A stretch of 64,000 bases of DNA from an uncultured Spirochaetia bacterium (GTDB lineage Bacteria > Desulfobacterota_D > UBA1144 > Nemesobacterales > JADFKM01), in NCBI GenBank assembly GCA_964639895.1, contig CAZXEJ010000001.1, forward strand, positions 60,237 to 124,236. Direction: 5' to 3'. Shown here piece by piece: positions 7,152 to 62,991 of the stretch; positions within the stretch are counted from its first letter, which is position 1; each line of letters begins with the position of its first letter. The position numbers and the translations under genes are program-made. Below the pieces are notes generated by a model, which worked only from the letters and a program-made list of their open reading frames with translations, was not told where the DNA came from and ran no database searches.

Positions 7152-7314
7152 GAAACGGGTGGGGTGTCAAACGCTCCGTTTTGCAGTGTGGAAAGAGAAC
7201 GAGCCAAAGAAAATCAGTAATTAGAGGGGGTTGGAAGAGACGCCCGTCGAAGGTCCCACGCCCCGCGGGTGGCTGACCGGGGGCTCGACGCCAGCCGACC
7301 ACAGCGGCCCGGAG

Positions 7315-45618: not shown

Positions 45619-46577
45619 CTTGTAACACCCCCTGCACGGAATAGTCCCCTGGGAGAAAACCCCAAGCAACCCAACTAAAATCTATTATGAAACAAAAAAG
45701 GGCCGGTGACAAAGCAGCCGACGACACATGCGCTCACGACCGGGAAGGAGCGCTCTACGAGGGGGCCGTGTTTCGGCCGAGGGTTCCTGGATCCAAAGCA
45801 GCAAGCAGGCAACATCACTTCAGACCCCCGCCCACATCTCCCACCAGCGCATGGACTAAGGAACCACGAGCATTATCCACCAAAAACCTTCCGTACCCCC
45901 CCTCACCCCGGCGGACGAGGATAACCTCCACTCATCCGATCCCCCAACACACAGGGACAAAGACGCTTACAACGGGGAAATGCGACACCGGTGGGCGTTA
46001 CCCCTCGTGCATCAGGGGGGGACAAAGGCCACCGCACGGGGCGTCTATGCGGCCTCCCCTACCACCATGGTCTGAGGAGCACACTCCGCAATGCCGCACC
46101 GGGCAAGGGACGGAACCGCATAGTTGCGCGAGACGCCGCATGCACGTACTTCATCCCATGGCAGCCGCTCCAACACGGCAACCGCCGTCGAGTCCGACTT
46201 GCGGGCCCGCGTGAAGGGAGGCATACCACGTAGAGGTAGAGGCAAACAATGGACGCCCCGACCCACGGCGCCCGTGGGAACGCAGATGTGGCGGGGGCCT
46301 GGGCACCTACATGCCGCCGCCACAAGCAGCCCGAGCACAGGGCACGCGTTCGGCAGCCAGCCGCCGACGGCGGGTCTATACGGCCGGAGCGAGAGTGCTC
46401 GTCACCTTCGTCCACGGCTCGATGCGGCTCGCCCACAGGCGCTCCAAGGATGCAACGCCCATGCAACTCGAAAGGATTGTGTATATTTGAGCACGTCGGC
46501 ACTCCCTTTTGCCGAGGCCGCCTTCTACTCTGGCGGCGTCCATGGACGGGAGAGGAGCCCCCTCCGTCCGAGGCGGC

Positions 46578-46919
46578 TCAGCCGTCCCTTCCGAAGTGCC
46601 TGCGTGCTATGGGATCGTCGTCGAGCTCGGAGACGAGGTAGCCCACCTCGTACTGGTTGTGTGGCCTGTAGTAGAGCCTCACGCCCTGGGGCGTCCTCAT
46701 GTAGAACCCCTCGCGTACCGTGTGGTCGGGAAGCTCCACCTCGTAGACCGGCACGGCCACGGTGCCTCCGCCCAGGTTGACGGGCATCCTCTCCTCCCTC
46801 AGCTTCTCGACCCTGCGCGCGACGTCCCACACCTTGGGAAAGACCTGACCTTTCACTTCCACCTTCATCACCATGACGAACCAAACCGCTTCGGCTCTCT
46901 CGCCGCGCAGCCCGCACAC
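46578..46919 (-). CDS. hypothetical small protein
   Basis: 113 aa ORF. A likely start is the internal MKVEVKGQVF... No recognised domain. 9 nt downstream of the zinc-ribbon ORF. Confidence 0.4.
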   Translation of the reverse strand: MCGLRGERAEAVWFVMVMKVEVKGQVFPKVWDVARRVEKLREERMPVNLGGGTVAVPVYEVELPDHTVREGFYMRTPQGVRLYYRPHNQYEVGYLVSELDDDPIARRHFGRDG

Positions 46920-46928
46920 CGTGGCGGA

Positions 46929-47342
46929 CTACGCCACTTCCGAGACTTCCACTCTAGTTATCATCCCGATGCAGCTCAGTATCCTGTCCAGTTTCTCCCT
47001 TCTCTCGTGCACGCGGCTCACGCTCAGCCGCTCCCCGCACGACGGACAGCTCACCCCCTCGCGGGACTGCCGCTCGTTGAGCCAGCTCTCATCGCTCCAC
47101 CCGCACCCCGCACACCGAAGCAGCACCTTGGCGTACCACGCAAGATGGGAGTAGAGGAGCTCGTTTATGCTCCTTACACGAAGAGAATCGGCCCACGTCA
47201 CGAGGTCCTCGGCGAGCCGGCGCCTGTAGCGCTCGGGCACCTCCTCGAAGGAGCCCGAGTAGATCACATCGTCGTCGACGAACACCCTGAACACTACCTC
47301 CACGGCCGCAGACCTCCTGCCACCAGCCATATCAAAATACAC
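46929..47342 (-). CDS. hypothetical protein with C-terminal CxxC-N17-CxxC zinc ribbon
   Basis: 137 aa. CAGCGW...CPSCGERL. Non-low-complexity composition, unlike the surrounding spurious ORFs. Confidence 0.4.
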   Translation of the reverse strand: MYFDMAGGRRSAAVEVVFRVFVDDDVIYSGSFEEVPERYRRRLAEDLVTWADSLRVRSINELLYSHLAWYAKVLLRCAGCGWSDESWLNERQSREGVSCPSCGERLSVSRVHERREKLDRILSCIGMITRVEVSEVA

Positions 47343-47816
47343 TTGTGTGAGGCCGTTTTCAACCGCGGGAAGCGAGCCCTACATGCAACCTCTCCAGGCC
47401 ACGCAGCTCCAGGGCCCGGACAGGTACGGGGAGGCGCGCAGCCGACGTGGCCAGAACGGCTGGGCGCACCGAGTGCGCACCTCCCCGATGGCCGCAAAGG
47501 CGCGCCTCGGCCGCCGGGCATGCAGCCCGGAGAGGTCGCCCGGGTCGCAATCCGCCTCCCTCTCCAGGGGCCGGCCGGCGAGGAGGCCACGGCCACCAAA
47601 CCCACGGGTTCGCGGGACGGGCAACACGCAGCCCACCACCCCCAGCCGACTCGCCACTACACGGAACGCATGCACACCAAACCGCAGCCCATGCGGTACG
47701 TGCAGCGCACGCCCGCCGCATACGCTACCAAGGGACGCCGGGTCCGGAACGCACCCGCAGCCGGGCGCAAGCGTTGCTGCGCCGGCTCATGTGGCGGTCA
47801 ACCGATTCTATTCTAT

Positions 47817-48896
47817 TCAATCCACGCGGGAGAGCCTGGACGACAACAGGTGGTCCACCAGGACGAGGTTCACCATCGCCTCTGCAATGGGTACGGCGCG
47901 CGGGCAGAGGCACGGGTCGTGGCGTCCCTTCACGACGAGCTCGCGCTTGCGGCCGTGGCGGTCGACGGTGTGCTGTACGGAGGGAATCGACGAGGTTGGC
48001 TTTACGGCTATCCTCACCACCAACTCCTCGCCCGTAGTGATCCCACCGAGCAGGCCGCCTGCCCGGTTGGTCTTGAACCGCAGCCTGCCCTCGGCGTCGG
48101 CGTACATGAGGTCGTTTACCTGCGAGCCCCTCTTCTTTGCGGCCTCGAACCCCAGCCCGATCTCGAATCCCCTCACGCCACCTATGCTCATGAGAGCAGC
48201 CGCAAGGTCGGCGTCGAGCTTGTGGAACACCGGCTCGCCGAGCCCCGCCGGAAGACCGCGCGTCACGACCTCTACCACCCCACCCACCGAGTCTCCCTGC
48301 GAGCGTACCTCCTCGATGAGCTCCACCATCCTGCGGGCGGCCTCCGCATCGGGACACCTCACCGGGTTGCGCTCGATCTCGGAGAGGTCCACCTTCCGGG
48401 CCACCACGTTGCCCACGCGGCGCACGAAACCCGTGGTAACCACCCCGTGGCGGGCGAGCAGCTTCTTGGCGATGGCTCCGGCGGCCACGCGGCCCACCGT
48501 CTCGCGGGCCGAGGCTCGTCCACCGCCACGCCAGTCACGGTGGCCGTACTTGGCCTCGTAGGTGAAATCGGCGTGGCCCGGCCTGTAGACGTCGCGTATG
48601 TCCTCGTAGGACTTCGATATGACGTCGCGGTTGTAGACCAGCATCGATATGGGAGTCCCTAAGGTCCTGCCCTCGAACACCCCCGACAGTATCTCGACCT
48701 CGTCGGGCTCCTTGCGCTGTGTGGTTATGACGCTCTGACCGGGACGGCGCCTGTCGAGCTCGAACTGGATGTCGCTCTCGCTGAGCTCCAGTCCGGCCGG
48801 ACAGCCGTCGACCACGACGCCCACGGCCCTACCGTGGGACTCGCCCCAGGTGGTGACGGTGAAGTAGCGGCCGAACGTGTTGCCGGGCATGCTCAA
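47817..48896 (-). CDS. aroC: chorismate synthase
   Basis: 359 aa. GESHG N-terminal motif ([22 protein letters not shown]) and conserved AroC signatures. Confidence 0.95.
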
Positions 48897-49033
48897 ATTC
48901 TATACCACGGGCGGCGGCGTTTCAACGACCCCGCCGGCACCGAGGGCGGCGGTGCGCTATTGCCATCGCGCGCGGGGATCCTTAATATTAAGAGCGTGGA
49001 AAGGGGAACCTCCCAACGCACGACCCGCCTGCC

Positions 49034-49807
49034 ATGAGGATCCATATTCTAGGCTGTTCAGGCTCACAGACGACGGGCTCCGGTACGACCTCCATCCTCG
49101 TTGACGACACCCTGCTCGTAGACGCCGGCACGGCCGCCGTCGACGTCCCGCACTCGACGCGGCTCGGGCTGAGCGGCGTCGTGCTTACCCACGCCCACCT
49201 CGACCACGTGTGCGGGCTCGCCTTCCTGCTCGACTCCCGGCACGCCCGGGACGGTCGTACGCTGCCCCTTGCAGCCTCACCGAGCACGATCGAGGCGCTG
49301 AGAGACCACCTGTTCAACGACCTCATCTGGCCCGATCTCACGAGGCTTCCCACCCCCGCCCGCCCGGCGATCACCTACGTCTCCCTGCCGCCATGCGAGC
49401 CGCACTCATTGTGCGGCTACACGGTCACGGCCGTTCCCGTCGACCACTCCATCCCCACCGTCGGCCTCATCCTGTCCGACGGCCGCTCGGCCGTGGCCTT
49501 CTCATCCGACACCGGCCCCACGGAGAAATTCTGGGAGGCCGTGGGCGGCGACCCCTCCGTGAGGGCGCTCATCGTGGAGTGCTCCTTCCCGAACGAGATG
49601 GAGCGCGAGGCCGTGGCGACGGACCACCTTACGCCGAGGATGCTGGGAAGGGAACTTGCCAAATGCACCCGCCCCGGGATGGAGGTCTACGTGACCCACC
49701 TGAAACCCCCCTACAGGGAGCGCATAGCGCGTGAGCTGATGGAGCTCAGTCTGAAGACGGGGATGGAGCTTACGTTGCTGAGGGACGGCATGACGATCGA
49801 CGTCTAG
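49034..49807 (+). CDS. class II 3',5'-cyclic-nucleotide phosphodiesterase (MBL fold)
   Basis: 257 aa. THAHLDHVCGLAFLLDS closely matches the class II cAMP-PDE signature HxHLDH..G. Confidence 0.75.
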   Translation: MRIHILGCSGSQTTGSGTTSILVDDTLLVDAGTAAVDVPHSTRLGLSGVVLTHAHLDHVCGLAFLLDSRHARDGRTLPLAASPSTIEALRDHLFNDLIWPDLTRLPTPARPAITYVSLPPCEPHSLCGYTVTAVPVDHSIPTVGLILSDGRSAVAFSSDTGPTEKFWEAVGGDPSVRALIVECSFPNEMEREAVATDHLTPRMLGRELAKCTRPGMEVYVTHLKPPYRERIARELMELSLKTGMELTLLRDGMTIDV

Positions 49808-49864
49808 CGCACGGCAAGGGCGCCGTGGGAAGGCCGCCAGGGGAGTGCGGCGCACGAGGATACG

Positions 49865-52018
49865 ATGGTCCGAGGACGAAGCGAGACCAGCCGAGGACGA
49901 AGGGCGCTCGCCGCGGCGCTTCTGGCTGGTGCCGTGGGCGCGCTGCTGGGCGCTGCCCTATACGTGCTCAATCCCCAGCCGCTCTATGAGATCGACCGCC
50001 GTCTCGTCGACGAGAGGCAGAGGCTGCGGGGCCCCCGCCGGCCCCCCGCCGAGGTGGTGCTCGTGGCCATCGACGAGAAGAGCATCAACCGCTACGGGCG
50101 CTGGCCGTGGCCGAGGAGCCGCGTGGCGTCGCTCATCGAAAGGATAGCCAAAGCCGGGGCCAAGACGATCGCCCTCGACGTCGTCTTCTCCGAGCCTGCC
50201 ACTCCCGCCGAGGACGGCGCCCTCGCCGAGGCCGTAGCACGGGCGGGCAACGTGGTGCTGGGCTACTTCTTCCGCGACGACGCCTCCTCACCTCCTCCCG
50301 CCGAGGCGCTCGAGCAGCTCAAGAGGAGCGCCGTCAGGATAACCCTCGGCGAGCTCGACCGGCCGCCGCTCGGCTTTCCGGACGTCGAACTGAACATACC
50401 TTCGCTCGGGCGCGGGGCCTCGGCGATGGGGTTTTTCAACTTCCCCACGGCCGATCCGGACGGCCTCCTCAGGAGGTCACTCCTTGTGGCGTCGTTCCGT
50501 GGAGCCATATACCCTTCGCTCGCCCTTGCGGCGGCAAGCAGCTTCGTCGGCGGGTCCCCGGCGATGCGAGCCGGCCCCCGCCGGGGGGTGGAGGGGTTCG
50601 TGCTGGGCAGCCTCCAGGTAACGACCACACCCCACGGCGAGCTCGTGCTCAACTACTACGGTCCCGCGGGCTCGCTCCCCACGGTGAGCGCAGCCGATGT
50701 GCTCGACGGAACCTTCGTCGGCGACACCCTTGCGGGAAGGCTCGTATTGGTCGGGGCCACGGAGACGGGCATAGCCGACACGCGGGCGACCCCCCTTGAG
50801 CCGTTCATGCCTGGCGTGGAGGTGCAGGCCACGGCCGCCGCCAACATCTTGGACGGCTCCTTCCTCGTAGAGGGCCCGGCGTCGCGCATCGCCGACTACG
50901 CGGCTCTCGTCGTGCTGCCGCTCGCCCTGGGCCTTGTGCTCGCCTTCGTGCCGTCTACCCCCGTCGGCGCGACGGTCTGGCTCGCCGCGCTCGCACTGGA
51001 GGCAACGGCGGGCTACTGGCTGTTCCGCGCATTCAACCTTTCGACGACGGCCCTCTATCCGGCGCTCTCGCTCACGGCGGCGTTCGTTCTCTTCGAGAGC
51101 TACCGCAACGTCGCTCTGGAGAGGAGGCGTCGGTACCTGCGGCGCGCCTTCTCCACCTACCTGGCCCCGGAGCTCGTCCGCAGGCTCGTCGAGGACCCCG
51201 ACCGCCTGCGCCTGGGGGGACGGACGGCCGAGGTGACGGTGCTTTTCTGTGACGTGCGCGGTTTCACCAGACTCGCCGAGAGCCTCTCGGCCGAGGAGAC
51301 GGTCGAGCTGCTCAACTCGATGCTCGGCCCCCTGAGCCGGATCGTGATGAACGAGGGCGGAATGCTCGACAAGTACCTGGGCGACGGCCTGATGGCCGTC
51401 TTCGGGGCCCCCATCGAGGTGGAGGACCACGCGCGGCGGGCCTGCAGGGCGGCCCTCGAGATGGCGGCCGCCGTCGAGCGGCTCAACGAAGAGCGCGCAG
51501 GGCGCGGACTGGCACCACTGCGGCTGGGCATAGGCATCAGCACCGGGCGCGCCGTCGTGGGCAACATCGGGGCCGACGTGAGGTTCGACTTCACCGCCGT
51601 GGGCGATGCCGTCAACGTGGCCTCACGCCTGGAGGAGCTCTCGAAGCACTACGGGGCCACGATCGTCGTAAGCGAATCCACCCGCGAGGCCCTCGGCGAC
51701 GGGGAATTCACTGCGAGGCGGCTCGATACGGTGAGGCTCAGGGGGCGGCGTCGGCCGGTGGCCGTCTACGAGATAGTGCCTACAGGAGACGCCGCCCGCA
51801 GGGCCGAGAGGTTCGAGAGGGCAAGGCTTCTCTATACGGAGAAGAGGTTTGGCGAAGCGCTGGCGCTGTTCCGGGCCATAGTGGAAGACGACCCCTCGGA
51901 CGGCCCAGCGTTGCTATACGTGCGAAGGTGCGAACGCCTGATCGAGAACCCGCCCTCGCCGGAGTGGGACGCGGTGTTTGAGGCCGAAGCGGAAGAAAGT
52001 TTCCCCGAGACCACATAG
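49865..52018 (+). CDS. CHASE2 sensor domain-containing adenylate/guanylate cyclase
   Basis: 717 aa. N-terminal TM, periplasmic CHASE2-like region (VVLVAIDEKS...YGRWPWPR), 3-4 TM helices, and a C-terminal class III cyclase domain (FCDVRGFT..., GDG.MAVFGAP). Confidence 0.9.
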   Translation: MVRGRSETSRGRRALAAALLAGAVGALLGAALYVLNPQPLYEIDRRLVDERQRLRGPRRPPAEVVLVAIDEKSINRYGRWPWPRSRVASLIERIAKAGAKTIALDVVFSEPATPAEDGALAEAVARAGNVVLGYFFRDDASSPPPAEALEQLKRSAVRITLGELDRPPLGFPDVELNIPSLGRGASAMGFFNFPTADPDGLLRRSLLVASFRGAIYPSLALAAASSFVGGSPAMRAGPRRGVEGFVLGSLQVTTTPHGELVLNYYGPAGSLPTVSAADVLDGTFVGDTLAGRLVLVGATETGIADTRATPLEPFMPGVEVQATAAANILDGSFLVEGPASRIADYAALVVLPLALGLVLAFVPSTPVGATVWLAALALEATAGYWLFRAFNLSTTALYPALSLTAAFVLFESYRNVALERRRRYLRRAFSTYLAPELVRRLVEDPDRLRLGGRTAEVTVLFCDVRGFTRLAESLSAEETVELLNSMLGPLSRIVMNEGGMLDKYLGDGLMAVFGAPIEVEDHARRACRAALEMAAAVERLNEERAGRGLAPLRLGIGISTGRAVVGNIGADVRFDFTAVGDAVNVASRLEELSKHYGATIVVSESTREALGDGEFTARRLDTVRLRGRRRPVAVYEIVPTGDAARRAERFERARLLYTEKRFGEALALFRAIVEDDPSDGPALLYVRRCERLIENPPSPEWDAVFEAEAEESFPETT

Positions 52019-52197
52019 AGCCCCGGGGCAAGAAACGCCGTTACAGGACGTTACGTGACGAAGCGGAGAAAATGCCTTACCCATGCGTTTTAACTCGCTT
52101 GCATCATAACATATCCAATCTCCAGCGCACGAGATGGACGGAGGGGACCGGAATTAAAGGACACAATTAACTTTTGGTCCAAATCGCCTATCCCGTA

Positions 52198-52227
52198 TTG
52201 ACATTTGATCAAAAAAGGCTGTACAAT
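52198..52227 (+). promoter_or_regulatory. near-consensus sigma70 promoter (TTGACA-N18-TACAAT)
   Basis: TTGACAtttgatcaaaaaaggctgTACAAT lies 60 nt upstream of the TPR/beta-barrel gene. The spacer contains the palindrome TTGATCAA. The leader carries a GGGGAAGT direct repeat. Confidence 0.4.
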
Positions 52228-52286
52228 GTGGGGGAAGTCCGTCCCCGTAGGGCGACAGGCGGGGAAGTGGTGCGAGAAGGGATGAG

Positions 52287-53813
52287 ATGAAGAGACTCCA
52301 TCTGCTTACGACCGCCGCACTACTAGCCGGCATGCTTGCCGCCCTACCACTCCATGCCCAAGAACCCCCGGCCGGGAGAGCCTACGAGACCCGCCTCAAC
52401 AAGGCTTTGGCGGCCTACTACCGGCACAACTACGAGCAGGCGGCCTCGCTGCTCGAGACGCTGCTCGAGGCCAATCCCGACGATGTCGCCGCTACCCACT
52501 ACATGGGGCTAGTGCTCTACAAGTTTGGCCGCTACGACGAGGCTATCGGATTTCTCGAGCGGGCTCGTCGACTCGATCCGTCGCTTCCCGCGATAGAGCT
52601 AGACATAGGTCTTGCGCGCCTCAAGCAGGGACACTACGAGGAGGCCCTCGAGGCACTTCGGCACGCACAGAAAAAGCTTCCCGCAAGCGGATTCGTGGCG
52701 TTCAATATCGGCTACACGCTGTTTCTCCTAGACCGCTACGAGGAAGCCTTGGTCGAGCTACGCCGGGCGCGGCGACTGGACGCCGATTTCAGCGTCCCAT
52801 CGCTCTTCTACGAAGGGCTCTCCCTATATCACCTCGGCCGCTACCCCTCAGCGCTGGCCACGCTCCGCGACGTCCGCCGCCGGGGTGCAGGAACACCGTT
52901 CGGCATTTCCGCCGCTAGCTACATCGCCACACTCGAGCTGCTGACCAAGCCCTACTACGGCGCCCTTTCCACAGGTTACCAGTTCGACACCAATGTCGTC
53001 CTTGAGCCTGACGCGATCGAGATAACCGACGAGCAGGACAGCCGCTGGTTTGCAAACTTCACCGTCGCCTGGAGGCCCGTGCTCAAGGACGACTACGAGC
53101 TCAAGGCCTCCTGGAACACATACTTCTCCCTCCACGCCGACATCGAGCAGCTTAACCTGCAGGCCCATCGCTTCGACATCACCAGCACCAAACGCACCAC
53201 CCTCGGCCGCTACCCGGCGGCCTTCACCTTCAACTACTTCTACAACTTCGTCCTCGTCGACGGTTCCCCGGCCGACGAGCTGTTCTCCCAGACGCACGCC
53301 GTCTCACAGTCGTTGAGCGTCGCCTGGGCCAAGCACATCTCGACCGAGGTGGCGGCCGAGCTTCGCTTCGACAACTTCAAGGAGTTCCCCGAGCGTGACG
53401 CCGTCCGGGCTACTTTCACCGTTGCCGAATCCATCCTGCTGAGGCGGGGGCTCACGCTGCTGCGCCCCGGTGTGACGGCATCGTTCAACTTCGCAGACGA
53501 TATCGCTGGCAGGCGCAACTTCGACCAGGCCCTGGGCGGTGTGTTCATCGAGACCACTTCCTACATGCCGTGGGAGCTCACCCTGTTCGCCCGCCTACAC
53601 TACTACGCCGCTTCCTATTACAACGACCCCTTCGACAGGGTGGACAACCAGCTCGGCCTCAAGGTGGTCGTCTCACGCAGGCTCTACCGGACGGTCTCGC
53701 TCGACCTCGGCTGGGAGAACGTCTCCAACTTCTCCAGCAGCGACTTTCCCGGCCCCGAGCCGTTCGAATATTTCCGCAACATCTTCTCGGCCACTTTGTC
53801 CGCACGTTTTTAG
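52287..53813 (+). CDS. outer-membrane protein with N-terminal TPR domain and C-terminal beta-barrel (Slam/DUF560-like architecture)
   Basis: 508 aa. Signal peptide MKRLHLLTTAALLAGMLAALPLHA. About 6 TPR-like repeats in residues 30-230. The C-terminal ~280 aa show alternating amphipathic beta-strand patterning and end in ..ATLSARF, the aromatic terminal residue typical of an OMP beta-signal. Confidence 0.7.
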   Translation: MKRLHLLTTAALLAGMLAALPLHAQEPPAGRAYETRLNKALAAYYRHNYEQAASLLETLLEANPDDVAATHYMGLVLYKFGRYDEAIGFLERARRLDPSLPAIELDIGLARLKQGHYEEALEALRHAQKKLPASGFVAFNIGYTLFLLDRYEEALVELRRARRLDADFSVPSLFYEGLSLYHLGRYPSALATLRDVRRRGAGTPFGISAASYIATLELLTKPYYGALSTGYQFDTNVVLEPDAIEITDEQDSRWFANFTVAWRPVLKDDYELKASWNTYFSLHADIEQLNLQAHRFDITSTKRTTLGRYPAAFTFNYFYNFVLVDGSPADELFSQTHAVSQSLSVAWAKHISTEVAAELRFDNFKEFPERDAVRATFTVAESILLRRGLTLLRPGVTASFNFADDIAGRRNFDQALGGVFIETTSYMPWELTLFARLHYYAASYYNDPFDRVDNQLGLKVVVSRRLYRTVSLDLGWENVSNFSSSDFPGPEPFEYFRNIFSATLSARF

Positions 53814-53842
53814 CATTATATTTAACGGTTAGGAGGGCGTAA

Positions 53843-54691
53843 GTGCGTAACTCATCCGTCCTGGCTTCGGCTGGGGTGATAGTGTGTATTATCCTCTGCG
53901 TCGCAACCGCTGGGCGCGCCCACGCCCAACAGCGGGGAGACGCCGTGGGTGTGGTCACGGTGACCGTGGGCGCCGTATCGGTGGAGAGCAACGGCCTCGT
54001 GGAGCGCGTGGTGCCGGGCTCCGCCGTCTACGTGGGAGACGTCTTCAGGACGGGTGAGGACTCGGCGCTCAACATCATGCTCGACGACGACACGTTGCTC
54101 ACACTGGGCGCCGACGCTGAATTGGAGATCACTCGGTTCATCTACAACCCCGCGGCCGAGAGGAACTCGACGTTCAGGGTGCTGAAAGGCATCCTCAAGG
54201 CCGTCGTGGAGAGATTCGCCGCGGGCCCCTCGGAAGTGAGGTTTGTGACGCCGCGCGGTGTGGCCGGCATAAAGGGTACCGTGCTGTATGTCGACGCCGA
54301 CCGCGGTGTGTTCTACGTATTGGAGGGTACGGTGCATGTACGGGGCACCGCCCCCCAAGCCGCCGAGGTGGTGCTTACGAGCGGCACCTATACGGTGATC
54401 CCCGAAGGAGGTTCGCCCTCCAGTCCGGCCGCGGCAGACGACGAACTGAGAGAGGGCTTCGAGAAGGCCACACACGTCGAGCCGACGCCCGGTGCTCAAG
54501 ACCCCTCGAGGGAGGAAGACTACCCCGGCAGCGAGGCGGGCGACGACTATTCCAAGACGTTCGAGGGCGGAAGCGCCGGCTGGCTCGCAAGCAACCTTCC
54601 GCTGAGGCCGCCCGTGGACCTGTTGCCGAGCGTGGACGTACACAACAGGGCGCTGGTCGAGGTGGTGATACCCACGCCGCCCGGACCCTGA
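53843..54691 (+). CDS. FecR-domain protein (secreted/periplasmic)
   Basis: 282 aa. GTG start 10 nt after an AGGAGGG Shine-Dalgarno. Signal peptide, then a FecR-like region (VGVVTVTVGAVSVESNGLVERVVPGSAVYVGDVFRTGEDSALNIMLDDDTLLTLGADAELEI). Confidence 0.7.
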   Translation: MRNSSVLASAGVIVCIILCVATAGRAHAQQRGDAVGVVTVTVGAVSVESNGLVERVVPGSAVYVGDVFRTGEDSALNIMLDDDTLLTLGADAELEITRFIYNPAAERNSTFRVLKGILKAVVERFAAGPSEVRFVTPRGVAGIKGTVLYVDADRGVFYVLEGTVHVRGTAPQAAEVVLTSGTYTVIPEGGSPSSPAAADDELREGFEKATHVEPTPGAQDPSREEDYPGSEAGDDYSKTFEGGSAGWLASNLPLRPPVDLLPSVDVHNRALVEVVIPTPPGP

Positions 54692-54716
54692 GGGCGCCGC
54701 GACAGAGTGAGGAGAG

Positions 54717-55628
54717 ATGACGAAACAGCAACGCCATACCCAAGGGCCGGCGCAAGGGGCCGAGATCCAAACCGTACCATGTAGTTTCGCGGCCTACGCC
54801 GTAAAGACCGCTCTGCTCATTCTCGTCTTCGCCGCCGCGGCCTCATGCGGCGGGGGGGGCACCGACACGGCCACCATCACCGTGATGACGGAGTTTCCCC
54901 ACGCCCCTGCCGTGGGGGTGACATCGGCGGAATCGAGTGCTTCCACGCTGGGAATCGATACCGTCTCGCTCAGCGTGCTCGGGCCCGACATGGAAGAGAT
55001 ACGGCGCACCTTCTCCGCACCCGGTCTTGATTCGGCGGGCGAAGCCGTCTTTGCAAGGATATTCCTCTTCGTCCCCGTGGGCCCCGACAGGGTATTCCGA
55101 GTGGTCCTCTCTGACGAGGGAGGACGTACCGTGTTCACGGGGTCGGCGACCTCAGACATCGAGCCCGGGCACAACGTGGTGGTCATACCGCTCAGGCCAA
55201 AGGACTGCGCCGACGGCCTTGACGACGATTTCAACGGCCTGATCGACTGCGCCGACGTCGTAAGCTGCGAGGGACAACCGTGCGATCAATCTGACATGAG
55301 AAAGATATGTATCGAAGGGGCGTGTGAGCTGCCGCCGGAGGCGTCCGGGCCGCCGGTTCCGGCCCCTCCCTCGGCGGGCGGCGAGGAGAACTGCGCCAAC
55401 GGCATTGACGACGACGGAGACGGGTTCACCGACTGCCAGGACACGTGGGACTGCGCCGGCAGGCTGTGTCTCGACGAAGACGAGACCGCCGGATCCTGCG
55501 ATCCAACTACTTCGAGCTGCGTAGTACCGGAAACCCAGCCCACCCCGGTGCCCATACCGAGCGGACCCCCGATGCCCACTCCATCTCCGTCACCCACGTT
55601 CTCGCCGCCTCCGCCTCCGCTGGGTTGA
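54717..55628 (+). CDS. lipoprotein with Cys/Asp-rich calcium-binding-like repeats and Pro-rich tail
   Basis: 303 aa. TM/signal plus lipobox (AAAASC). Two repeats CADGLDDDFNGLIDCADVVSC and CANGIDDDGDGFTDCQDTWDCAG, resembling thrombospondin-type-3-like DxDxDG motifs. C-terminus PTPVPIPSGPPMPTPSPSPTFSPPPPPLG. Confidence 0.65.
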   Translation: MTKQQRHTQGPAQGAEIQTVPCSFAAYAVKTALLILVFAAAASCGGGGTDTATITVMTEFPHAPAVGVTSAESSASTLGIDTVSLSVLGPDMEEIRRTFSAPGLDSAGEAVFARIFLFVPVGPDRVFRVVLSDEGGRTVFTGSATSDIEPGHNVVVIPLRPKDCADGLDDDFNGLIDCADVVSCEGQPCDQSDMRKICIEGACELPPEASGPPVPAPPSAGGEENCANGIDDDGDGFTDCQDTWDCAGRLCLDEDETAGSCDPTTSSCVVPETQPTPVPIPSGPPMPTPSPSPTFSPPPPPLG

Positions 55629-55763
55629 ATGCGCAGTAGACACCCCTCTTCGGGCCGACGTCGAGCGCGTGAGCACGTCCAAAGTGGAGGGAGACGCAGG
55701 GGACGAATCAGGCGCGCTCCTATCGGGAAGACGCGCGAAAACAACAGGAGAACGAGCGTGACG

Positions 55764-57284
55764 ATGGCGACAAAGCTGTCGAGAACGAGAACCCAGACGC
55801 AGGTAGAGAAGCTGAACGCCCTCTTGGAGATAGGCAAGTGTCTGGCCTCGGAAAGGGACCTCGACAAGCTGCTTGAGATGATCGCCCGCGAAGTCACCCA
55901 CGTCACGAACGCCGACAGGAGCACCATCTTCGTAGTGGACCGTGAGAAGGGCGAGCTCTGGTCCCGGATAGCGCAGAACCTGGAGATCACCGAGATAAGG
56001 ATGCCGATCGACCGCGGAATCGCCGGTTACGTGGCGACGAGCGGCGAGATCGTAAACGTCGCCGACGCCTACAAGGACCCGCGTTTCAACACCGAGGTGG
56101 ACCAGCTCACCGGCTACAAGACGCACTCCCTTCTGTGCGCCCCCATGGTTACGCGTGAGAACGACATCATCGGCGTCATCGAGGTCCTGAACAAGCACGG
56201 CGGGCCGTTCACGGCCGAGGACGAGGAGATACTGCTCGCCTTCGCAGGCGAGGCGGCCGTGGCCGTCGAGAACGCCCTGCTCTATGAACAGATAGAGCTG
56301 ATAATGGAAAGCTTCATCGGCGCAGCCGTCTACGCCATCGAGTCCCGAGACCCCACCACGTCGGGCCACTCGGCCCGCGTGGCCGCCTACACGCTCAGCC
56401 TGGCAAAAGCCGTCAACGAAATCACCACCGGACCGCTGGCCGACGTCAACTTCACCCCAAGGGAACTGAAGGCCCTGAGATACGCCTGCTTGCTGCATGA
56501 CTTCGGCAAGATCGGCGTCAGGGAAGCCGTGCTGCTGAAATCCAACAAGCTGTACGAACACGAGCTGGAGCTGCTGCTCATGCGGTTCCGGCTGATAAAG
56601 CGCAGCATCGAGGCCGACATACTGAAGAAGAAGCTCGAGATATTGCAGAGCGGCACCGGCGACGCCGACGACGCCCTTGCCAGGCTGGACGAAGAAATCG
56701 ACCGGGAGTTTCGCAAGATAGACGACTACCTGAAGTTCATACTAGAGTGTAACAAACCCACCACCACGCCACGGGACAACTTCGCCAAGCTGCGCCACAT
56801 AGCGCAACAGACCTACACCGACGTCGACGGCGCGCAGAAACCCTATCTGACGCAGTACGAGCTGGAGAGCCTCTCGATCGAGGTAGGCAGCCTGCGCCAG
56901 CACGAGCGCCTCGAGGTGGAGTCGCACGTAACCCAGACGGTGAACTTCCTGAAGAAGATCCCCTGGACGAAGGACCTCAAGGACATAGCCCTCATAGCCG
57001 GACGCCACCACGAGCGGCTGGACGGCTCCGGCTACCCGGACCAGTTGGATGGCCGGCACATCCCCTATCAGACGCGCATGATGATGATAGCCGACATATA
57101 CGACTCGCTCACGGCCATGGACAGGCCCTACAAGAAGACCTTCACGCCCGCCAAGGCCCTGGAGGTCCTCAAAGAGGAGGCAAGAAAGAACAAGATCGAC
57201 GGCGACCTGCTCAAGGTGTTCATCGAGGCCGAGATATACAAGAAGGGACTCGATCAGACTCCGCTGCCTGGTACGAAGCCATAG
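55764..57284 (+). CDS. GAF domain-containing HD-GYP phosphohydrolase (candidate c-di-GMP phosphodiesterase)
   Basis: Start MATKLSRT. GAF domain (ASERDLDKLLEMIAREV...). HD domain (HSARVAAY..LLHDFGKIG) with HHERLDGSGYP, the HD-GYP signature. Confidence 0.9.
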   Translation: MATKLSRTRTQTQVEKLNALLEIGKCLASERDLDKLLEMIAREVTHVTNADRSTIFVVDREKGELWSRIAQNLEITEIRMPIDRGIAGYVATSGEIVNVADAYKDPRFNTEVDQLTGYKTHSLLCAPMVTRENDIIGVIEVLNKHGGPFTAEDEEILLAFAGEAAVAVENALLYEQIELIMESFIGAAVYAIESRDPTTSGHSARVAAYTLSLAKAVNEITTGPLADVNFTPRELKALRYACLLHDFGKIGVREAVLLKSNKLYEHELELLLMRFRLIKRSIEADILKKKLEILQSGTGDADDALARLDEEIDREFRKIDDYLKFILECNKPTTTPRDNFAKLRHIAQQTYTDVDGAQKPYLTQYELESLSIEVGSLRQHERLEVESHVTQTVNFLKKIPWTKDLKDIALIAGRHHERLDGSGYPDQLDGRHIPYQTRMMMIADIYDSLTAMDRPYKKTFTPAKALEVLKEEARKNKIDGDLLKVFIEAEIYKKGLDQTPLPGTKP

Positions 57285-57360
57285 CAGCCCCCGTCTGACG
57301 GCCGCGGCCGGTGGCGACGGCATCTCGTCCCACCCCCGTGGGGGGACAGGGCCACAGGGT

Positions 57361-57891
57361 CTAACGTCCCCTGCCCAGCAACCTTTCCACGAACCTCCTT
57401 CTCCGATGACGCTCCCGTTCAAGCTCGATGAGCAGCCGCTGAGGCTCGATATCCAGGTAGCGGGAGATCGATTCCACCGTCACCTCTCCCAGGGAAGCGA
57501 CGGCGGGATCGATACGCCTGAGCTCGTGGTAGAGAAGGCGCAATTCGAGCCCTAAGGAGTCGTCGCCCTCGTAGATACCCTCGGGCTCGGCGGCCTCCTG
57601 GAGGGAGTGGTCGTCCATTTCTTCCAGTTCACTCTGGGTTAGCGTGCGAATGTAGATCTTCACGTCCATCTTCGTCAGCTCTTCGGCCAGCTCTTCGGTG
57701 TCGCGTCCGAGCTCGTTGGCAAGACTGTTGAGATCCACTAGGTTCAGCGCAGATTTTCTGTACGATCTGGCGGCGGACTCAACCACTATCTTCCCTTTAC
57801 GAATCCAGTCTCTGAGCGTAGACTCCGGAATGACCAGGGTCCTACTCACCTCCGCAAGGGGGACCAACGGCCTGTGGACCAAATATTTCAT
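57361..57891 (-). CDS. hypothetical DNA-binding protein with N-terminal MerR/excisionase-type helix-turn-helix
   Basis: 176 aa. LVPLAEVSRTLVIPESTLRDWIRKGKI matches the HTH_17/MerR-like fold. Acidic central region and basic C-terminus. Confidence 0.6.
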   Translation of the reverse strand: MKYLVHRPLVPLAEVSRTLVIPESTLRDWIRKGKIVVESAARSYRKSALNLVDLNSLANELGRDTEELAEELTKMDVKIYIRTLTQSELEEMDDHSLQEAAEPEGIYEGDDSLGLELRLLYHELRRIDPAVASLGEVTVESISRYLDIEPQRLLIELERERHRRRRFVERLLGRGR

Positions 57892-57959
57892 CTGACCTAC
57901 CCCACATTTAAATGCCTACTTCACCCATCCGGTATCCTGAGAGCGCATGCTCCACCGCC

Positions 57960-58002
57960 GATCCTCTTTATACTTGCTCTCGTAATAAGTATAAAGAGGA
58001 TC
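57960..58002. promoter_or_regulatory. perfect 16-bp inverted repeat (GATCCTCTTTATACTT-N11-AAGTATAAAGAGGATC)
   Basis: Read directly from the sequence. AT-rich palindrome about 70 bp upstream of the HTH gene start. No T-run follows, so it is not a typical intrinsic terminator. Confidence 0.35.
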
Positions 58003-60076: not shown

Positions 60077-61765
60077 ATGATAAACCCACGCGTTGTACCC
60101 CCACTACGGGTGGGCTGCCTGTTGTTGGCCGCCCTATCCTTCGTGGCACTCGCACCGACGGAATCCTCGCCGCGTGACCCTACAGGACGCCTTACCACCG
60201 GCTGGGGGCTGCATCGGGTGGTATTCTCCGTCCCCGAGGGCGACGTAGTCGTCATGCTGCCGGACGACCTTGCGGCGGGCGACACCATATCGGGCGCCGT
60301 CGTAGCCGCGCCGGCCGGCAAGGGGCGCAAGCGCCGCAAGATGGCCGACCGCCTGGAAGGCTACGTCGTGGCGGCCGAGGAGATGAAGGCGCCGGTGGGA
60401 AAGGGCGCGCTCAAGTGGACGGTGCCCGCGGCGCTGGCAGGAGGTACGGCTACGCTCATACTGCTGGATGAGAAGGGCAACGCGGCAGCCCGCACGGAGG
60501 TGCCCGTCGCGGCAGCACCGCCGCCCGCCGCGGTTGCGGAACCCCTGCCCGAGGACTTCGCGCTGCCCGAGATAGGGCAAGCGGGAAGACCCATCTCGAT
60601 CGGCGGTCCCTTCGACGGCGAGTTCGGGACCACAGCGGTCAAGATGGGCGGCGAGACGATCCCCCTTCTGGCCGAATCTCCCCGCAAGGTGGTGGTCCGC
60701 ACACCTCGTGACGTCGTGGGCGGGACGGAGCTCGAGGTGCGGGAGGGCGACGTCGTCGCCAAGGGCACTATCTACAACGTCGGTGTCTCGCTCTCGGCTC
60801 CCCGCACCAAGCTGCACCAAGGCGAGGAGACGACGCTCCAGCTGACGGTCGAGGGGCTCGCGGGCTACGGCAGGCCGCTTGACGTCTACGTGCGGAACGA
60901 GACGCCCGAAGTGGTATCGATGGAGGGCGGCAACCTGATCACCGTACGTATCAACCCCGACGACCTGGACGAAGAAGGCCTGTTCACAGCCACCATACCC
61001 GTGAGAGCGGTCAGGATGGGATCGTTCTCCATCTCGGCCGTCGTAGCCGCGGCGAGTGACCGGCACGACTACTCCACCACCCGCAGGTGGAAGAGCGTCA
61101 ACCACGACCTGGCCGCGTCCTCCAGATGGAAGAAGCGGCACAACGAGTCGGTGAGCGTGGCCGAGAAGCTGCCCGAGAGACACGCGGAAGAGTTGTCGGA
61201 GAAGTGGGTCGGGCGCAAGCACAGCTTGAGCACGAGCAGGAAGTGGCGTGCCGAGGGCCATGCGCTGGCGTTGACCGAGCGCTGGGGGAAGCACGCCTAC
61301 GCCCGCTCCCGGCAGTGGTCACACTCGAACCATGCGGTCGAAGCCTCGCGGCGGTGGAAGGACGACGGCCACGCCCACGGCACATCGCGGCTGTGGAGGG
61401 GCGAAGGACATGCATACGAACAAAGCACCGCATGGGCACGCCTGAAGCCCAAACACTCCTATGTGACGTCGAAGCACTGGAAGGGCTACGGCCACAAGGA
61501 GGCCGATTCGTGGAAGTGGAGGGCCGAGAAACACCAGCCGGGTATAAGCATAAAACGGGTCGGCAAACACGAGGCCGACACAACCAAGATGTGGAAAGGC
61601 GACCTCCACCGCGAAAAGCTCTCGCGCCGCTGGCGTGGTGAGGAACACCGCTACACGACGTCCATGAAATGGAAGGACGAGAGGCACAACCACCGCTTCT
61701 CGCGCAGGTGGAAGGGCGAGGGCCACAACTACGGCGAGAGCCGCAAGTGGCAGGGGAAGCGTTGA
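60077..61765 (+). CDS. secreted protein with C-terminal Trp/His/Lys/Arg-rich 13-residue tandem repeats
   Basis: 562 aa. Signal peptide (MINPRVVPPLRVGCLLLAALSFVALA). Residues 30-350 are likely beta-rich. Residues ~350-562 consist of about 16 copies of S-[RK]-[RK]-W-[KR]-x-[ED]-G-H-x-[YH]-x-x (e.g. SRRWKDDGHAHGT, SRLWRGEGHAYEQ, SRRWKGEGHNYGE). GAGGCGGAGG Shine-Dalgarno upstream. Confidence 0.7.
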   Translation: MINPRVVPPLRVGCLLLAALSFVALAPTESSPRDPTGRLTTGWGLHRVVFSVPEGDVVVMLPDDLAAGDTISGAVVAAPAGKGRKRRKMADRLEGYVVAAEEMKAPVGKGALKWTVPAALAGGTATLILLDEKGNAAARTEVPVAAAPPPAAVAEPLPEDFALPEIGQAGRPISIGGPFDGEFGTTAVKMGGETIPLLAESPRKVVVRTPRDVVGGTELEVREGDVVAKGTIYNVGVSLSAPRTKLHQGEETTLQLTVEGLAGYGRPLDVYVRNETPEVVSMEGGNLITVRINPDDLDEEGLFTATIPVRAVRMGSFSISAVVAAASDRHDYSTTRRWKSVNHDLAASSRWKKRHNESVSVAEKLPERHAEELSEKWVGRKHSLSTSRKWRAEGHALALTERWGKHAYARSRQWSHSNHAVEASRRWKDDGHAHGTSRLWRGEGHAYEQSTAWARLKPKHSYVTSKHWKGYGHKEADSWKWRAEKHQPGISIKRVGKHEADTTKMWKGDLHREKLSRRWRGEEHRYTTSMKWKDERHNHRFSRRWKGEGHNYGESRKWQGKR

Positions 61766-61848
61766 GGGCGCAGCGGATACGGCGCAGGAGCCTGAGGTGG
61801 GGCGGCGTCCGGCACCCTTCTGCGCGCTCCTGGGAGGAGGGGCGCGGC

Positions 61849-62991
61849 GTGCGGGGGGTGCGTGGGCGCCTTTCCCCGCTGCCGCCGCTTGCGCTCGCTC
61901 TGCTCCTATGCGTCGCGTGCCACGCTGCCACTCCTCCCATGGCCGGCCCCCCGGCCGGGCCAGACGGCGGAGCCGTACTGCAGGGCACCGTGACCGGCCC
62001 TGGCGAGGCCCCGCCGCACATCCCCTCCACACCGCACCCCTCCTTACGCCCTCGGCCGGTGCTCCAGACGAACGAGGCGTTCATCCGCTCACTGCACACC
62101 AACCTCGACATCACCGATACAAGAGAAGTGTTCTACTTCGTCCTCTCCTCCCTTCCACCACAGGTGGACGTCATCCCCACGGAGAACTACTACTACTTCT
62201 CCTTCTACACGGCTGGAAGGGAGGTGCGCGGCAACATTCGGTTCGACGTCTACGACCGCGACGAGGGACGAGTGAGCTTCGTCTACTACGTACACCGCCC
62301 CCACGGCGAACCCTGGCGCGAGAGCGCCACGTGGCAGGCCGCGTTGGGCGCCGAGCAAGGCGTATACGTACTGAAGGTCTCTGACAACGTTTACGCCGTC
62401 TCGATGAGGGGCAAAACGGTCCGTTTCCACCTGAACCCTGCTCCCAGGACGCCTCCCGCCGTGGCGCGGCTGGCCGAGGGCGATGAACTCATGGGGCGTG
62501 CGGTGGACGAATCGGGCATAGCGTTCCTGCTCGTCTACGATACGCGGCGCAAGGCCTTCATCTGGCTGCTCGACGAGGAACGACCCACGCCGCCGCTGGA
62601 AAGGATAGCCGAGGGCATGCTGCTGGACCCGCTGAGCGGGTTCATCTTCTGGGACGACCGTCAGCGGCGGGCCAAGGTGCTCATAGGGGTGAGTGCCCGC
62701 GATGTGAGGCTCAACACCTACTGGGACGGCCCCTTCGACCAGCTACCCGACAACAACCCCCATCCGCGGCTCAAGGAGAGGCTCGAGGAGGCCCACCCCT
62801 ACGCACGCGGAAGGCTCGACGCGCTGGGGCGGTTTACGGACGAGAAGAGGATGAGGATGGCCGTGACGCCCTACTACGAGTACGAGACGCTCGATGAGAT
62901 GGCCGACCTCGTCGAGGACTGCAGGCGCCGCGAGCCTGCCTACATCGTCGACTGCCTCACCTACGATTGGAAGAGCTCGCTCGAGCCCTGA
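61849..62991 (+). CDS. hypothetical secreted protein
   Basis: GTG start (VRGVRGRLSPLPPLALALLLCVAC...) 6 nt after a GGGAGGAGGGG Shine-Dalgarno. Signal peptide, then a Tyr-rich core (YYYFSFYTAGREVRGNIRFDVYDRDEGRVSFVYYVHRP). The tracked 440-aa ORF from 61669 overlaps the upstream gene and is trimmed. Confidence 0.55.
   Translation: MRGVRGRLSPLPPLALALLLCVACHAATPPMAGPPAGPDGGAVLQGTVTGPGEAPPHIPSTPHPSLRPRPVLQTNEAFIRSLHTNLDITDTREVFYFVLSSLPPQVDVIPTENYYYFSFYTAGREVRGNIRFDVYDRDEGRVSFVYYVHRPHGEPWRESATWQAALGAEQGVYVLKVSDNVYAVSMRGKTVRFHLNPAPRTPPAVARLAEGDELMGRAVDESGIAFLLVYDTRRKAFIWLLDEERPTPPLERIAEGMLLDPLSGFIFWDDRQRRAKVLIGVSARDVRLNTYWDGPFDQLPDNNPHPRLKERLEEAHPYARGRLDALGRFTDEKRMRMAVTPYYEYETLDEMADLVEDCRRREPAYIVDCLTYDWKSSLEP

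Follow-up and report, generated by a model that had tools for sequence, protein, structure and literature searches.

Three neighbouring genes in a 64-kb stretch of DNA from an uncultured Spirochaetia bacterium are predicted to encode an outer-membrane protein with TPR repeats and a beta barrel (gene 1), a secreted FecR-domain protein (gene 2) and a lipoprotein (gene 3), and they raise the question of whether such a set moves a protein to the cell surface or passes a signal through the envelope. The whole stretch is called the window below, and all coordinates refer to it unless a locus with an L number is named. A first-pass annotation had read the three genes as a unit of their own, related to the surface-lipoprotein assembly modulators (Slam, DUF560), with a CHASE2 adenylate cyclase as a mere neighbour. 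We found that the cluster is larger: the barrel gene is accompanied most constantly by the cyclase gene and the FecR gene, and a gene for a class-II phosphodiesterase of cyclic adenosine monophosphate (cAMP) at 49034-49807 had been missed. We lean towards the reading that genes 1-3 form the envelope half of a cAMP-signalling cluster of six genes, acting as an outer-to-inner-membrane relay similar to that of NsrA and the cyclase CyaK. The elements of the cluster are as follows.

49034-49807, + strand: class-II cAMP phosphodiesterase gene (257 aa, predicted cytoplasmic, metallo-beta-lactamase fold; PF02112)
49865-52018, + strand: CHASE2 adenylate cyclase gene (717 aa; PF05226 and PF00211)
52198-52227, + strand: sigma-70-type promoter-like site TTGACA-N18-TACAAT (11 of 12 consensus positions)
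52287-53813, + strand: gene 1, predicted outer-membrane protein with TPR array and barrel (508 aa)
53843-54691, + strand: gene 2, predicted secreted FecR-domain protein (282 aa; PF04773)
54717-55628, + strand: gene 3, predicted lipoprotein (303 aa; NF033662)
55629-57284, + strand: GAF and HD-GYP gene (PF01590 and PF13487)

Conservation of this arrangement was assessed in two sets of loci. The close set comprises nine loci found by exact-protein look-up and a genome scan (L001-L009, with two near-duplicates) and twelve metagenome loci (L022-L033), which gives 19 distinct loci with barrel identities of 35-53%. The distant set consists of eight sampled barrel relatives, namely L015, L016, L019, L020, L021 and three Rokubacteria-type loci (L012-L014). 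All 19 distinct close loci keep the CHASE2 cyclase, TPR-barrel and FecR genes collinear in this order as far as their contigs reach: a cyclase ortholog (38-46% identity) lies directly before the barrel gene in every locus with upstream sequence, and a FecR ortholog follows it in all loci with downstream sequence. L022 reproduces the exact order of the window through the lipoprotein and the GAF-HD-GYP gene. The expected conservation of the three-gene arrangement in related loci was borne out, with gene 3 present in most of them and not in all. Its ortholog occupies the third position in L001, L002/3, L006, L007, L008, L022, L024, L025, L027 and L028 and is absent in L004/5, L023 and L029, while L009 and L030 show, past the phosphodiesterase gene, only a weak match on the opposite strand (35-38% identity over about 66 residues). 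Homologous class-II phosphodiesterase genes stand beside the cluster in L004/5, L007, L009, L019, L021, L029, L030 and L031, and GAF-HD-GYP homologs in L022 (at the same position as in the window), L007, L028, L012 and L014. Between the cyclase and barrel genes of L009 (at about 6870-7240) there is in addition a stand-alone gene for a 123-aa cyclic-nucleotide-binding protein (PF00027, 73.9 bits), an insert that L030 probably carries too. In this clade of 35-38% identity, the insert of L009 appears to add a cAMP receptor to the cluster.

The same partners recur in three of the five further distant relatives (24-28% identity), one of which is Pfam-positive for SlipAM. L015 shows, in order, the barrel gene (SlipAM 36.6 bits), a FecR gene, a gene for an 824-aa protein and a CHASE2 cyclase gene; L019 shows a CHASE2 cyclase, PDEase_II, barrel, FecR and Big_9/cadherin protein; in L021 the barrel gene is followed by a FecR gene and a lipoprotein gene, with PDEase_II and CHASE2 cyclase genes 5 kb off. 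The genes behind FecR differ between the lineages: the 824-aa protein of L015 (4049-6523) has no Pfam match, that of L019 (9760-10950) is Big_9/cadherin-like and the lipoprotein of L021 (9460-11589) carries InlB-type B-repeats. In each of the three Rokubacteria-type loci the barrel gene faces a single gene or a tandem pair of genes for large proteins of 595-815 aa (L012 9522-11969, L013 8741-13144, L014 8642-13110). These proteins, from bins of Rokubacteria/Methylomirabilota type, carry FecR at the N-terminus, ahead of a long C-terminal part without a Pfam match. Two of the three loci also carry a GAF-HD-GYP gene about 40% identical to that of the window over nearly the full length. The gene in third position is variable and looks like one for a surface protein; the constant partners of the barrel clade are the FecR protein and, mostly, the CHASE2 cyclase.

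A similar set of domains has been studied in Sinorhizobium meliloti, where the outer-membrane protein NsrA is reportedly required for the CHASE2 cyclases CyaK and CyaD1/D2 to perceive plant and uL2 signals, so that perception of an external signal raises cAMP (PMC7529298, PMC13001267). The gene directly before cyaK on pSymB is presumably nsrA; its 1190-aa product has a FecR domain at residues 66-160, TPR at about 230-590 and, towards the C-terminus, a weak beta-barrel match. NsrA therefore has all three parts, FecR domain, TPR and outer-membrane barrel, together with an adjoining CHASE2 class III cyclase; it holds them on one chain, whereas in the window they are split over genes 1 and 2. Gene 2 aligns with the N-terminus of NsrA at 28% identity over 147 aa (pairwise E 1e-4), and gene 1 shows TPR-level similarity only (BLASTP). 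The barrel region of NsrA is about twice as long as that of gene 1, and homology between the two barrels was considered and rejected (hhalign probability 0.09). Unlike the window, the stretch read beside cyaK contains no lipoprotein, phosphodiesterase or HD-GYP gene. A fourth layout occurs on a plasmid of Ensifer sp. PDNC004 (L011 1-5692), where small TPR and FecR genes are divergent from genes for a CHASE2 cyclase and a metallo-beta-lactamase-fold hydrolase. As a separate observation, the TPR and FecR genes of this plasmid are followed on the same strand by genes for NHLP-family bacteriocin export (secretion protein and ABC peptidase/permease).

In Campylobacterota, clustered genes for a CHASE2 cyclase, a cAMP phosphodiesterase, a FecR protein and a TPR protein were noted in 2022, and a common pathway and horizontal spread were inferred for them (PMC9239204). 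All four gene types occur in the window as well, in one + strand cluster (49034-54691). By the description in that paper the Campylobacterota FecR protein is an outer-membrane protein with a separate TPR protein, whereas in the window the barrel belongs to the TPR protein and FecR is soluble; the paper describes no barrel family, lipoprotein or HD-GYP gene, all of which the window cluster has. A further likeness is the LysM-FecR gene (COG4254) that adjoins a CHASE2 histidine kinase gene in Burkholderiales and Pseudomonas including P. aeruginosa (PMC5192318), where a secreted FecR-domain protein is again encoded beside a CHASE2 sensor. That operon has a histidine kinase/response regulator output and a LysM domain, and no TPR-barrel protein is described for it, whereas the output in the window is a cyclase. 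Since the same domains are found fused in NsrA, split in the window and apparently split otherwise in Campylobacterota, a physical interaction of the parts appears likely. Because of these fused and split domain sets and the strict synteny we treat the genes of 49034-55628, at the least, as a single putative functional module. With regard to the proposal of an undescribed display or signalling module, the signalling half is better supported than surface display; the novelty is reduced, given that the gene set had already been noted (PMC9239204) and an analogue studied (PMC7529298, PMC13001267).

The kinship of gene 1 with Slam held at the level of the superfamily. Direct membership of its barrel in DUF560 had to be discarded: the barrel alone (287 aa) matches no Pfam family at E<=10, only TPR families appear among the 25 of 27 Pfam matches listed for the full-length protein, and the score against TPR_Slam (21.4 bits) lies under the cut-off of 35.2. 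Only a transitive route worked. A word-index search with gene 1 gave only about 18 full-length relatives of 36-47% identity from Thermodesulfobacteriota-like metagenome bins, so that the wider barrel family became visible only by exhaustive profile search. The relatives are annotated as Thermodesulfobacteriota or Deltaproteobacteria metagenome-assembled genomes, with one assigned to Spirochaetia. Using the barrel only, the profile search detected 1609 cluster representatives at E<=1e-3, 760 of them at E<=1e-10. The best 150 listed relatives are mostly 430-555 aa long and have an N-terminal part of 150-240 aa before the barrel. When 100 such relatives were compared with Pfam, TPR was found in all 100, TPR_Slam (PF24575) in 61, SlipAM (PF04575) in 36 with a best E-value of 2e-11, and BBP2_2 in 26. 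SlipAM is also the top family for seven of the ten nearest barrels outside the core clade and is detected (E<=1) in two more; three of the ten exceed its curated cut-off of 22 bits, with alignments collinear across the whole barrel. These three, P0129, P0135 and P0137, which the profile of the window clade found over the full barrel (E 3e-34 to 5e-32), score 36.6, 23.1 and 30.5 bits against SlipAM, collinear over profile positions of about 43-288. As relatives found by the barrel profile themselves match SlipAM, gene 1 is a divergent member of the DUF560/Slam superfamily, the barrels of the type XI secretion system (T11SS), although not by Pfam's own criterion.

This kinship suggests a different function, namely that gene 1 is a Slam-like type XI translocator which moves the gene 3 lipoprotein, the FecR protein or both to the surface, with the cyclase either uncoupled or, in a hybrid form, served by the lipoprotein as a sensor antenna. 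We consider this possible but rather unlikely. Relatives above the SlipAM cut-off and the 61 that also match TPR_Slam speak for it, as do the lipoprotein gene close by, which resembles the situation at Slam loci, and the combination of 14 strands with periplasmic TPR that is known from Slam (PMC8406197). The barrel of gene 1 itself, in contrast, is below SlipAM detection. The partners differ too: Slam/T11SS proteins are accompanied by TonB-dependent receptors and TbpB-like cargo and belong to host-associated Proteobacteria, whereas gene 1 is accompanied by FecR and a CHASE2 cyclase and its clade resides in Thermodesulfobacteriota-like metagenome-assembled genomes. The surveys PMC12282271 and PMC8406197 do not mention FecR, CHASE or cyclases in connection with T11SS, in agreement with the first-pass view that a FecR gene is foreign to described Slam loci.

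The architecture of gene 1 agrees with what had been proposed for it, a TPR array followed by a C-terminal barrel ending in Phe (...SARF). A Sec signal peptide (residues 1-24, cleavage ...LHA|QE) precedes about five TPR repeats, for which TPR families of Pfam match residues of about 30-200. An AlphaFold2 (AF2) model built on an alignment of 19 sequences is confident, with a predicted local distance difference test (pLDDT) score of 88.5, and shows 11 helices (29-220) and then 14 beta strands (223-507), which is the Slam-type layout. The two parts of gene 1 are:

52371-52946, + strand: TPR array, residues 29-220, predicted periplasmic
52953-53810, + strand: beta barrel, residues 223-508, 14 strands in the AF2 model

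In the Protein Data Bank the barrel has no sequence relative, and Foldseek matches to the model are generic 14-strand barrels and TPR proteins. The best conserved motifs, DGSPAD.LFSQ, FPERDA, NDPFDRVDNQ and SDFPGPEPF, are located at residues 325-336, 366-372, 446-455 and 484-495, in short loops that would lie on the outer face if the TPR arm is periplasmic as predicted. Outer loops of barrels are usually variable, and the conservation in gene 1 is the opposite pattern. BcsC is the top Foldseek match of the full-length model (E 4.5e-12), the architecture of TPR plus barrel is common to BcsC, PgaA and PelB, and an HD-GYP gene adjoins; gene 1 might therefore be taken for a polysaccharide-export porin that serves the biofilm matrix under control of the nearby nucleotide signalling. 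Such a porin would be a 16-strand barrel of the PgaA/BcsC/PelB family within a synthase operon, which does not describe gene 1 and its surroundings, and we consider this function highly improbable. The barrel is thus not PgaA/BcsC-like, the case named beforehand as the one that would overturn the Slam assignment.

Gene 2 is the secreted FecR-domain protein it was said to be. The FecR domain (PF04773, 35.8 bits against a cut-off of 24) spans residues 66-164 (54038-54334), and a signal peptide of signal-peptidase-I type with the cleavage site AHA|QQ is kept in the orthologs. The C-terminal tail is of low complexity, yet ortholog alignments reveal conserved YPG and PPVDLLP...VxVxI motifs; Pfam gave no further match in the tail. 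In a protein search gene 2 found only three relatives. It is weakly related to the Leptospira FecR-domain lipoproteins Lsa33 and LipL45 (NCBIfam), and since Lsa33 is named a surface adhesin this counts in favour of export by gene 1. In E. coli the periplasmic domain of FecR couples the outer-membrane barrel FecA to a step at the inner membrane. The FecR domain of gene 2 could accordingly indicate classical FecA-FecR-FecI signalling with gene 2 as anti-sigma factor for a sigma factor of the extracytoplasmic function (ECF) type, and one distant relative (L020) indeed adjoins an ECF sigma gene. Against this, the signal peptide of gene 2 is cleavable and the protein has neither an anti-sigma domain at its N-terminus nor a membrane helix; the cluster genes and the scanned ORFs of the window include no ECF sigma (sigma-70 r2/r4) or TonB-dependent receptor family; and the 14-strand barrel of gene 1 has no plug or STN domain. 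We give this pathway slightly less credence still than the export porin, and there is little to support either of the two.

For gene 3 the description as a lipoprotein with Cys/Asp repeats and a Pro-rich tail was likewise confirmed. A hydrophobic segment ends in the lipobox ...SC(G)GG with Cys44 (54846-54848), which is conserved in the orthologs, so the possibility that gene 3 lacks a functional lipobox finds no support. A beta-rich N-terminal domain of about 110 aa (residues about 50-160) is followed by these elements:

55206-55325, + strand: acidic 6-Cys repeat 1, residues 164-203 (NF033662)
55392-55520, + strand: acidic 6-Cys repeat 2, residues 226-268 (NF033662)
55524-55625, + strand: C-terminal Pro-rich tail

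Each repeat unit contains six Cys and a DxDxDG-like core, and the NCBIfam profile NF033662 matches in two stretches with 47.5 bits, above its curated cut-off of 41, which places gene 3 among the acidic double-disulfide repeat proteins. Clear orthologs stand in third position in L001 and L002 (BLASTP 1e-27 and 2e-18); they keep the SCGG lipobox, the N-terminal domain and the repeats, with CARDB replacing the Pro-rich tail at their end, and the ortholog in L007 (9716-11443) has many more acidic Cys repeats and long Pro/Thr linkers.

Surface export of the gene 3 lipoprotein in the manner of Slam is possible, and the variable, Ig-like and often lipidated third genes (L019, L021; CARDB in L001/L002) would fit a set of exported cargoes. 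Known T11SS cargo shares a C-terminal 8-strand barrel domain (PMC12282271), whereas Pfam and NCBIfam detected no such domain (TbpBBD / lipoprotein C type) at the C-terminus of gene 2 or gene 3. Gene 3 is also missing in L004/5, L023 and L029 while FecR and the cyclase are constant, and the FecR domain of NsrA stands N-terminal to TPR and barrel and hence on the periplasmic side (PMC7529298). These three points speak against export as the sole function; relay and export can be combined.

The genes for the cytoplasmic side confirm the flanks given in the first-pass annotation, a CHASE2 adenylate cyclase upstream and a GAF-HD-GYP gene downstream. The cyclase consists of a periplasmic CHASE2 domain (residues 32-340; PF05226, 204.6 bits), transmembrane segments, a class III cyclase domain (453-633; PF00211, 96.4 bits) and a weak C-terminal TPR. 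The phosphodiesterase matches PF02112 PDEase_II with 63.6 bits (cut-off 23.7) and also Lactamase_B_2. In the third protein, GAF (PF01590, 82.4 bits) and HD_5 (PF13487, 103 bits) were found at these positions by Pfam:

about 55857-56267, + strand: GAF domain
about 56361-57209, + strand: HD-GYP region

The HD-GYP region contains HHERLDGSGYP, an intact HHExxDGxGYP motif, and the GAF domain contains LNKHGGPFTAEDE (NK-x4-F-x3-DE), a motif of the NKFDE type known from cyclic-nucleotide-binding GAF domains. Translation probably begins near residues 39-46 (about 55743-55764) and not at 55629, where the listed open reading frame opens: alignments to homologs set in only at residues 39-46, and the 45 residues at the N-terminus are rich in Arg. 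Going by its recurrence beside the cluster and its motifs, the protein is a plausible candidate for a cAMP-responsive phosphodiesterase of cyclic di-GMP (c-di-GMP) which would turn cAMP into c-di-GMP turnover, and this recurrence suggests that it belongs to the module. The upstream PDEase_II gene, the cyclic-nucleotide-binding gene of L009 and the NKFDE-type GAF domain all point to a cAMP context, as a relay would have it.

The relay may work as follows. The 14-strand barrel of gene 1 would lie in the outer membrane, its TPR arm reaching into the periplasm, and gene 2, a soluble periplasmic adaptor, would bind this arm, perhaps via its conserved C-terminal tail, and report the barrel's state to the cyclase at its periplasmic CHASE2 domain. 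CHASE2 would then alter the rate of cAMP synthesis, the class-II phosphodiesterase would reset the signal, and cAMP would likely be read by the GAF-HD-GYP protein, which would connect the signal with c-di-GMP. An outer-membrane-anchored accessory part with a ligand-binding or adhesive role, variable between lineages, would come from gene 3. Gene content, domain architectures, the predicted 14-strand fold, the superfamily relationship of the barrel and synteny over distant lineages are directly established; from them we infer localisation, all protein contacts, the direction of the signal and what gene 3 and the HD-GYP protein do.

Several points weigh against the relay, each step of whose mechanism is inferential. 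As the NsrA barrel has no detectable homology to that of gene 1, the comparison with NsrA is an analogy by domain content and gene position and not one of orthology. Near two of the eight distant relatives (L016 and L020) there is neither a FecR nor a CHASE2 gene, and in the three Rokubacteria loci FecR occurs with no CHASE2 within 7 kb; because of these five loci the barrel family is not tied exclusively to CHASE2. The AF2 model of gene 2, based on a 4-sequence alignment, reached a pLDDT of only 43.8 and is too poor to judge the tail or any interfaces. Homology to translocators of the Slam type is an argument for protein transport, and not sensing, as the possible task of the barrel. A bolder form of the relay would reconcile the two functions: a barrel of the Slam branch might have been recruited for outside-in signalling, displaying a variable lipoprotein antenna or holding it in its lumen, so that the TPR arm and the FecR adaptor switch CHASE2. 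By this account CHASE2 domains would generally read an outer-membrane partner, as FecR reads FecA, instead of small ligands, which would explain why CHASE2, ever since its definition, has been without a known ligand. We regard this form as speculative and doubtful.

With respect to gene layout, the three same-strand ORFs, their close spacing and the promoter-like site are all as first claimed. Genes 1, 2 and 3 are separated by gaps of 29 and 25 nt, and each is preceded by a Shine-Dalgarno-like sequence; gene 2 starts with GTG behind AGGAGG and gene 3 with ATG behind GAGGAG. The promoter-like site lies 60 nt before the start codon of gene 1, inside the 268-nt spacer after the cyclase gene, and is the sole match of such quality on both strands of the window (0.01 expected). 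The gene 1 orthologs of L001, L002, L006 and L008 (10-11 of 12 positions) and of L007 (9 of 12) are likewise preceded by a TTGACA site, with a -10 element following after 17-18 nt. Because of the window-unique site and the comparable sites at five related loci, the operon of genes 1-3 probably has its own promoter. No CRP-type sites (TGTGA-N6-TCACA and near variants) were found in the spacers before gene 1 and its orthologs, an Rfam scan of 48800-58000 at E<=0.1 gave no match and hence no known riboswitch or leader, and no intrinsic terminators were found on the + strand of 51500-56500. An imperfect palindrome, GGAC-N14-GTCC at about 52160-52181, was dropped since it is not conserved. A GC-rich hairpin of 10 pairs (52003-52028) overlaps the stop codon of the cyclase gene; it lacks a T-run on the + strand and appeared terminator-like in the scan only for the minus strand, and it may attenuate read-through into the 268-nt spacer. 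Mechanical ORF calls overlap real genes in places, for example a 717-aa ORF (46509-48662) opposite the chorismate synthase gene at 47817-48896; such long overlapping ORFs without plausible products are not genes. Just past the cluster, three sizeable ORFs at 60077-61765 (+), 61669-62991 (+) and 57361-57891 (-) match no Pfam family at E<=0.001.

The extracytoplasmic sensor domain CHASE2 is common in bacterial cyclases, kinases and c-di-GMP enzymes, and to our knowledge NsrA in one rhizobium is the only functional lead for it. The Pfam description, as far as it is quoted in PMC5192318, gives the signals of CHASE2 as unknown. It now emerges that a FecR domain, TPR and an outer-membrane barrel accompany CHASE2 cyclases in unrelated lineages, and the window cluster supplies the argument from fusion versus split for a physical interaction of the parts. 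Within the literature searched it appears to be new that the TPR component is a 14-strand barrel of the DUF560 superfamily and that its clade is systematically paired with FecR-domain proteins. For the question of how CHASE2 is activated, the window offers a split NsrA-like version made of small separable proteins, more tractable than a 1190-aa fusion. For the type XI secretion family, a branch outside host-associated Proteobacteria may have a non-secretory or dual role. If the relay model is true, trans-envelope signalling of the FecA/FecR kind would extend to second-messenger output.

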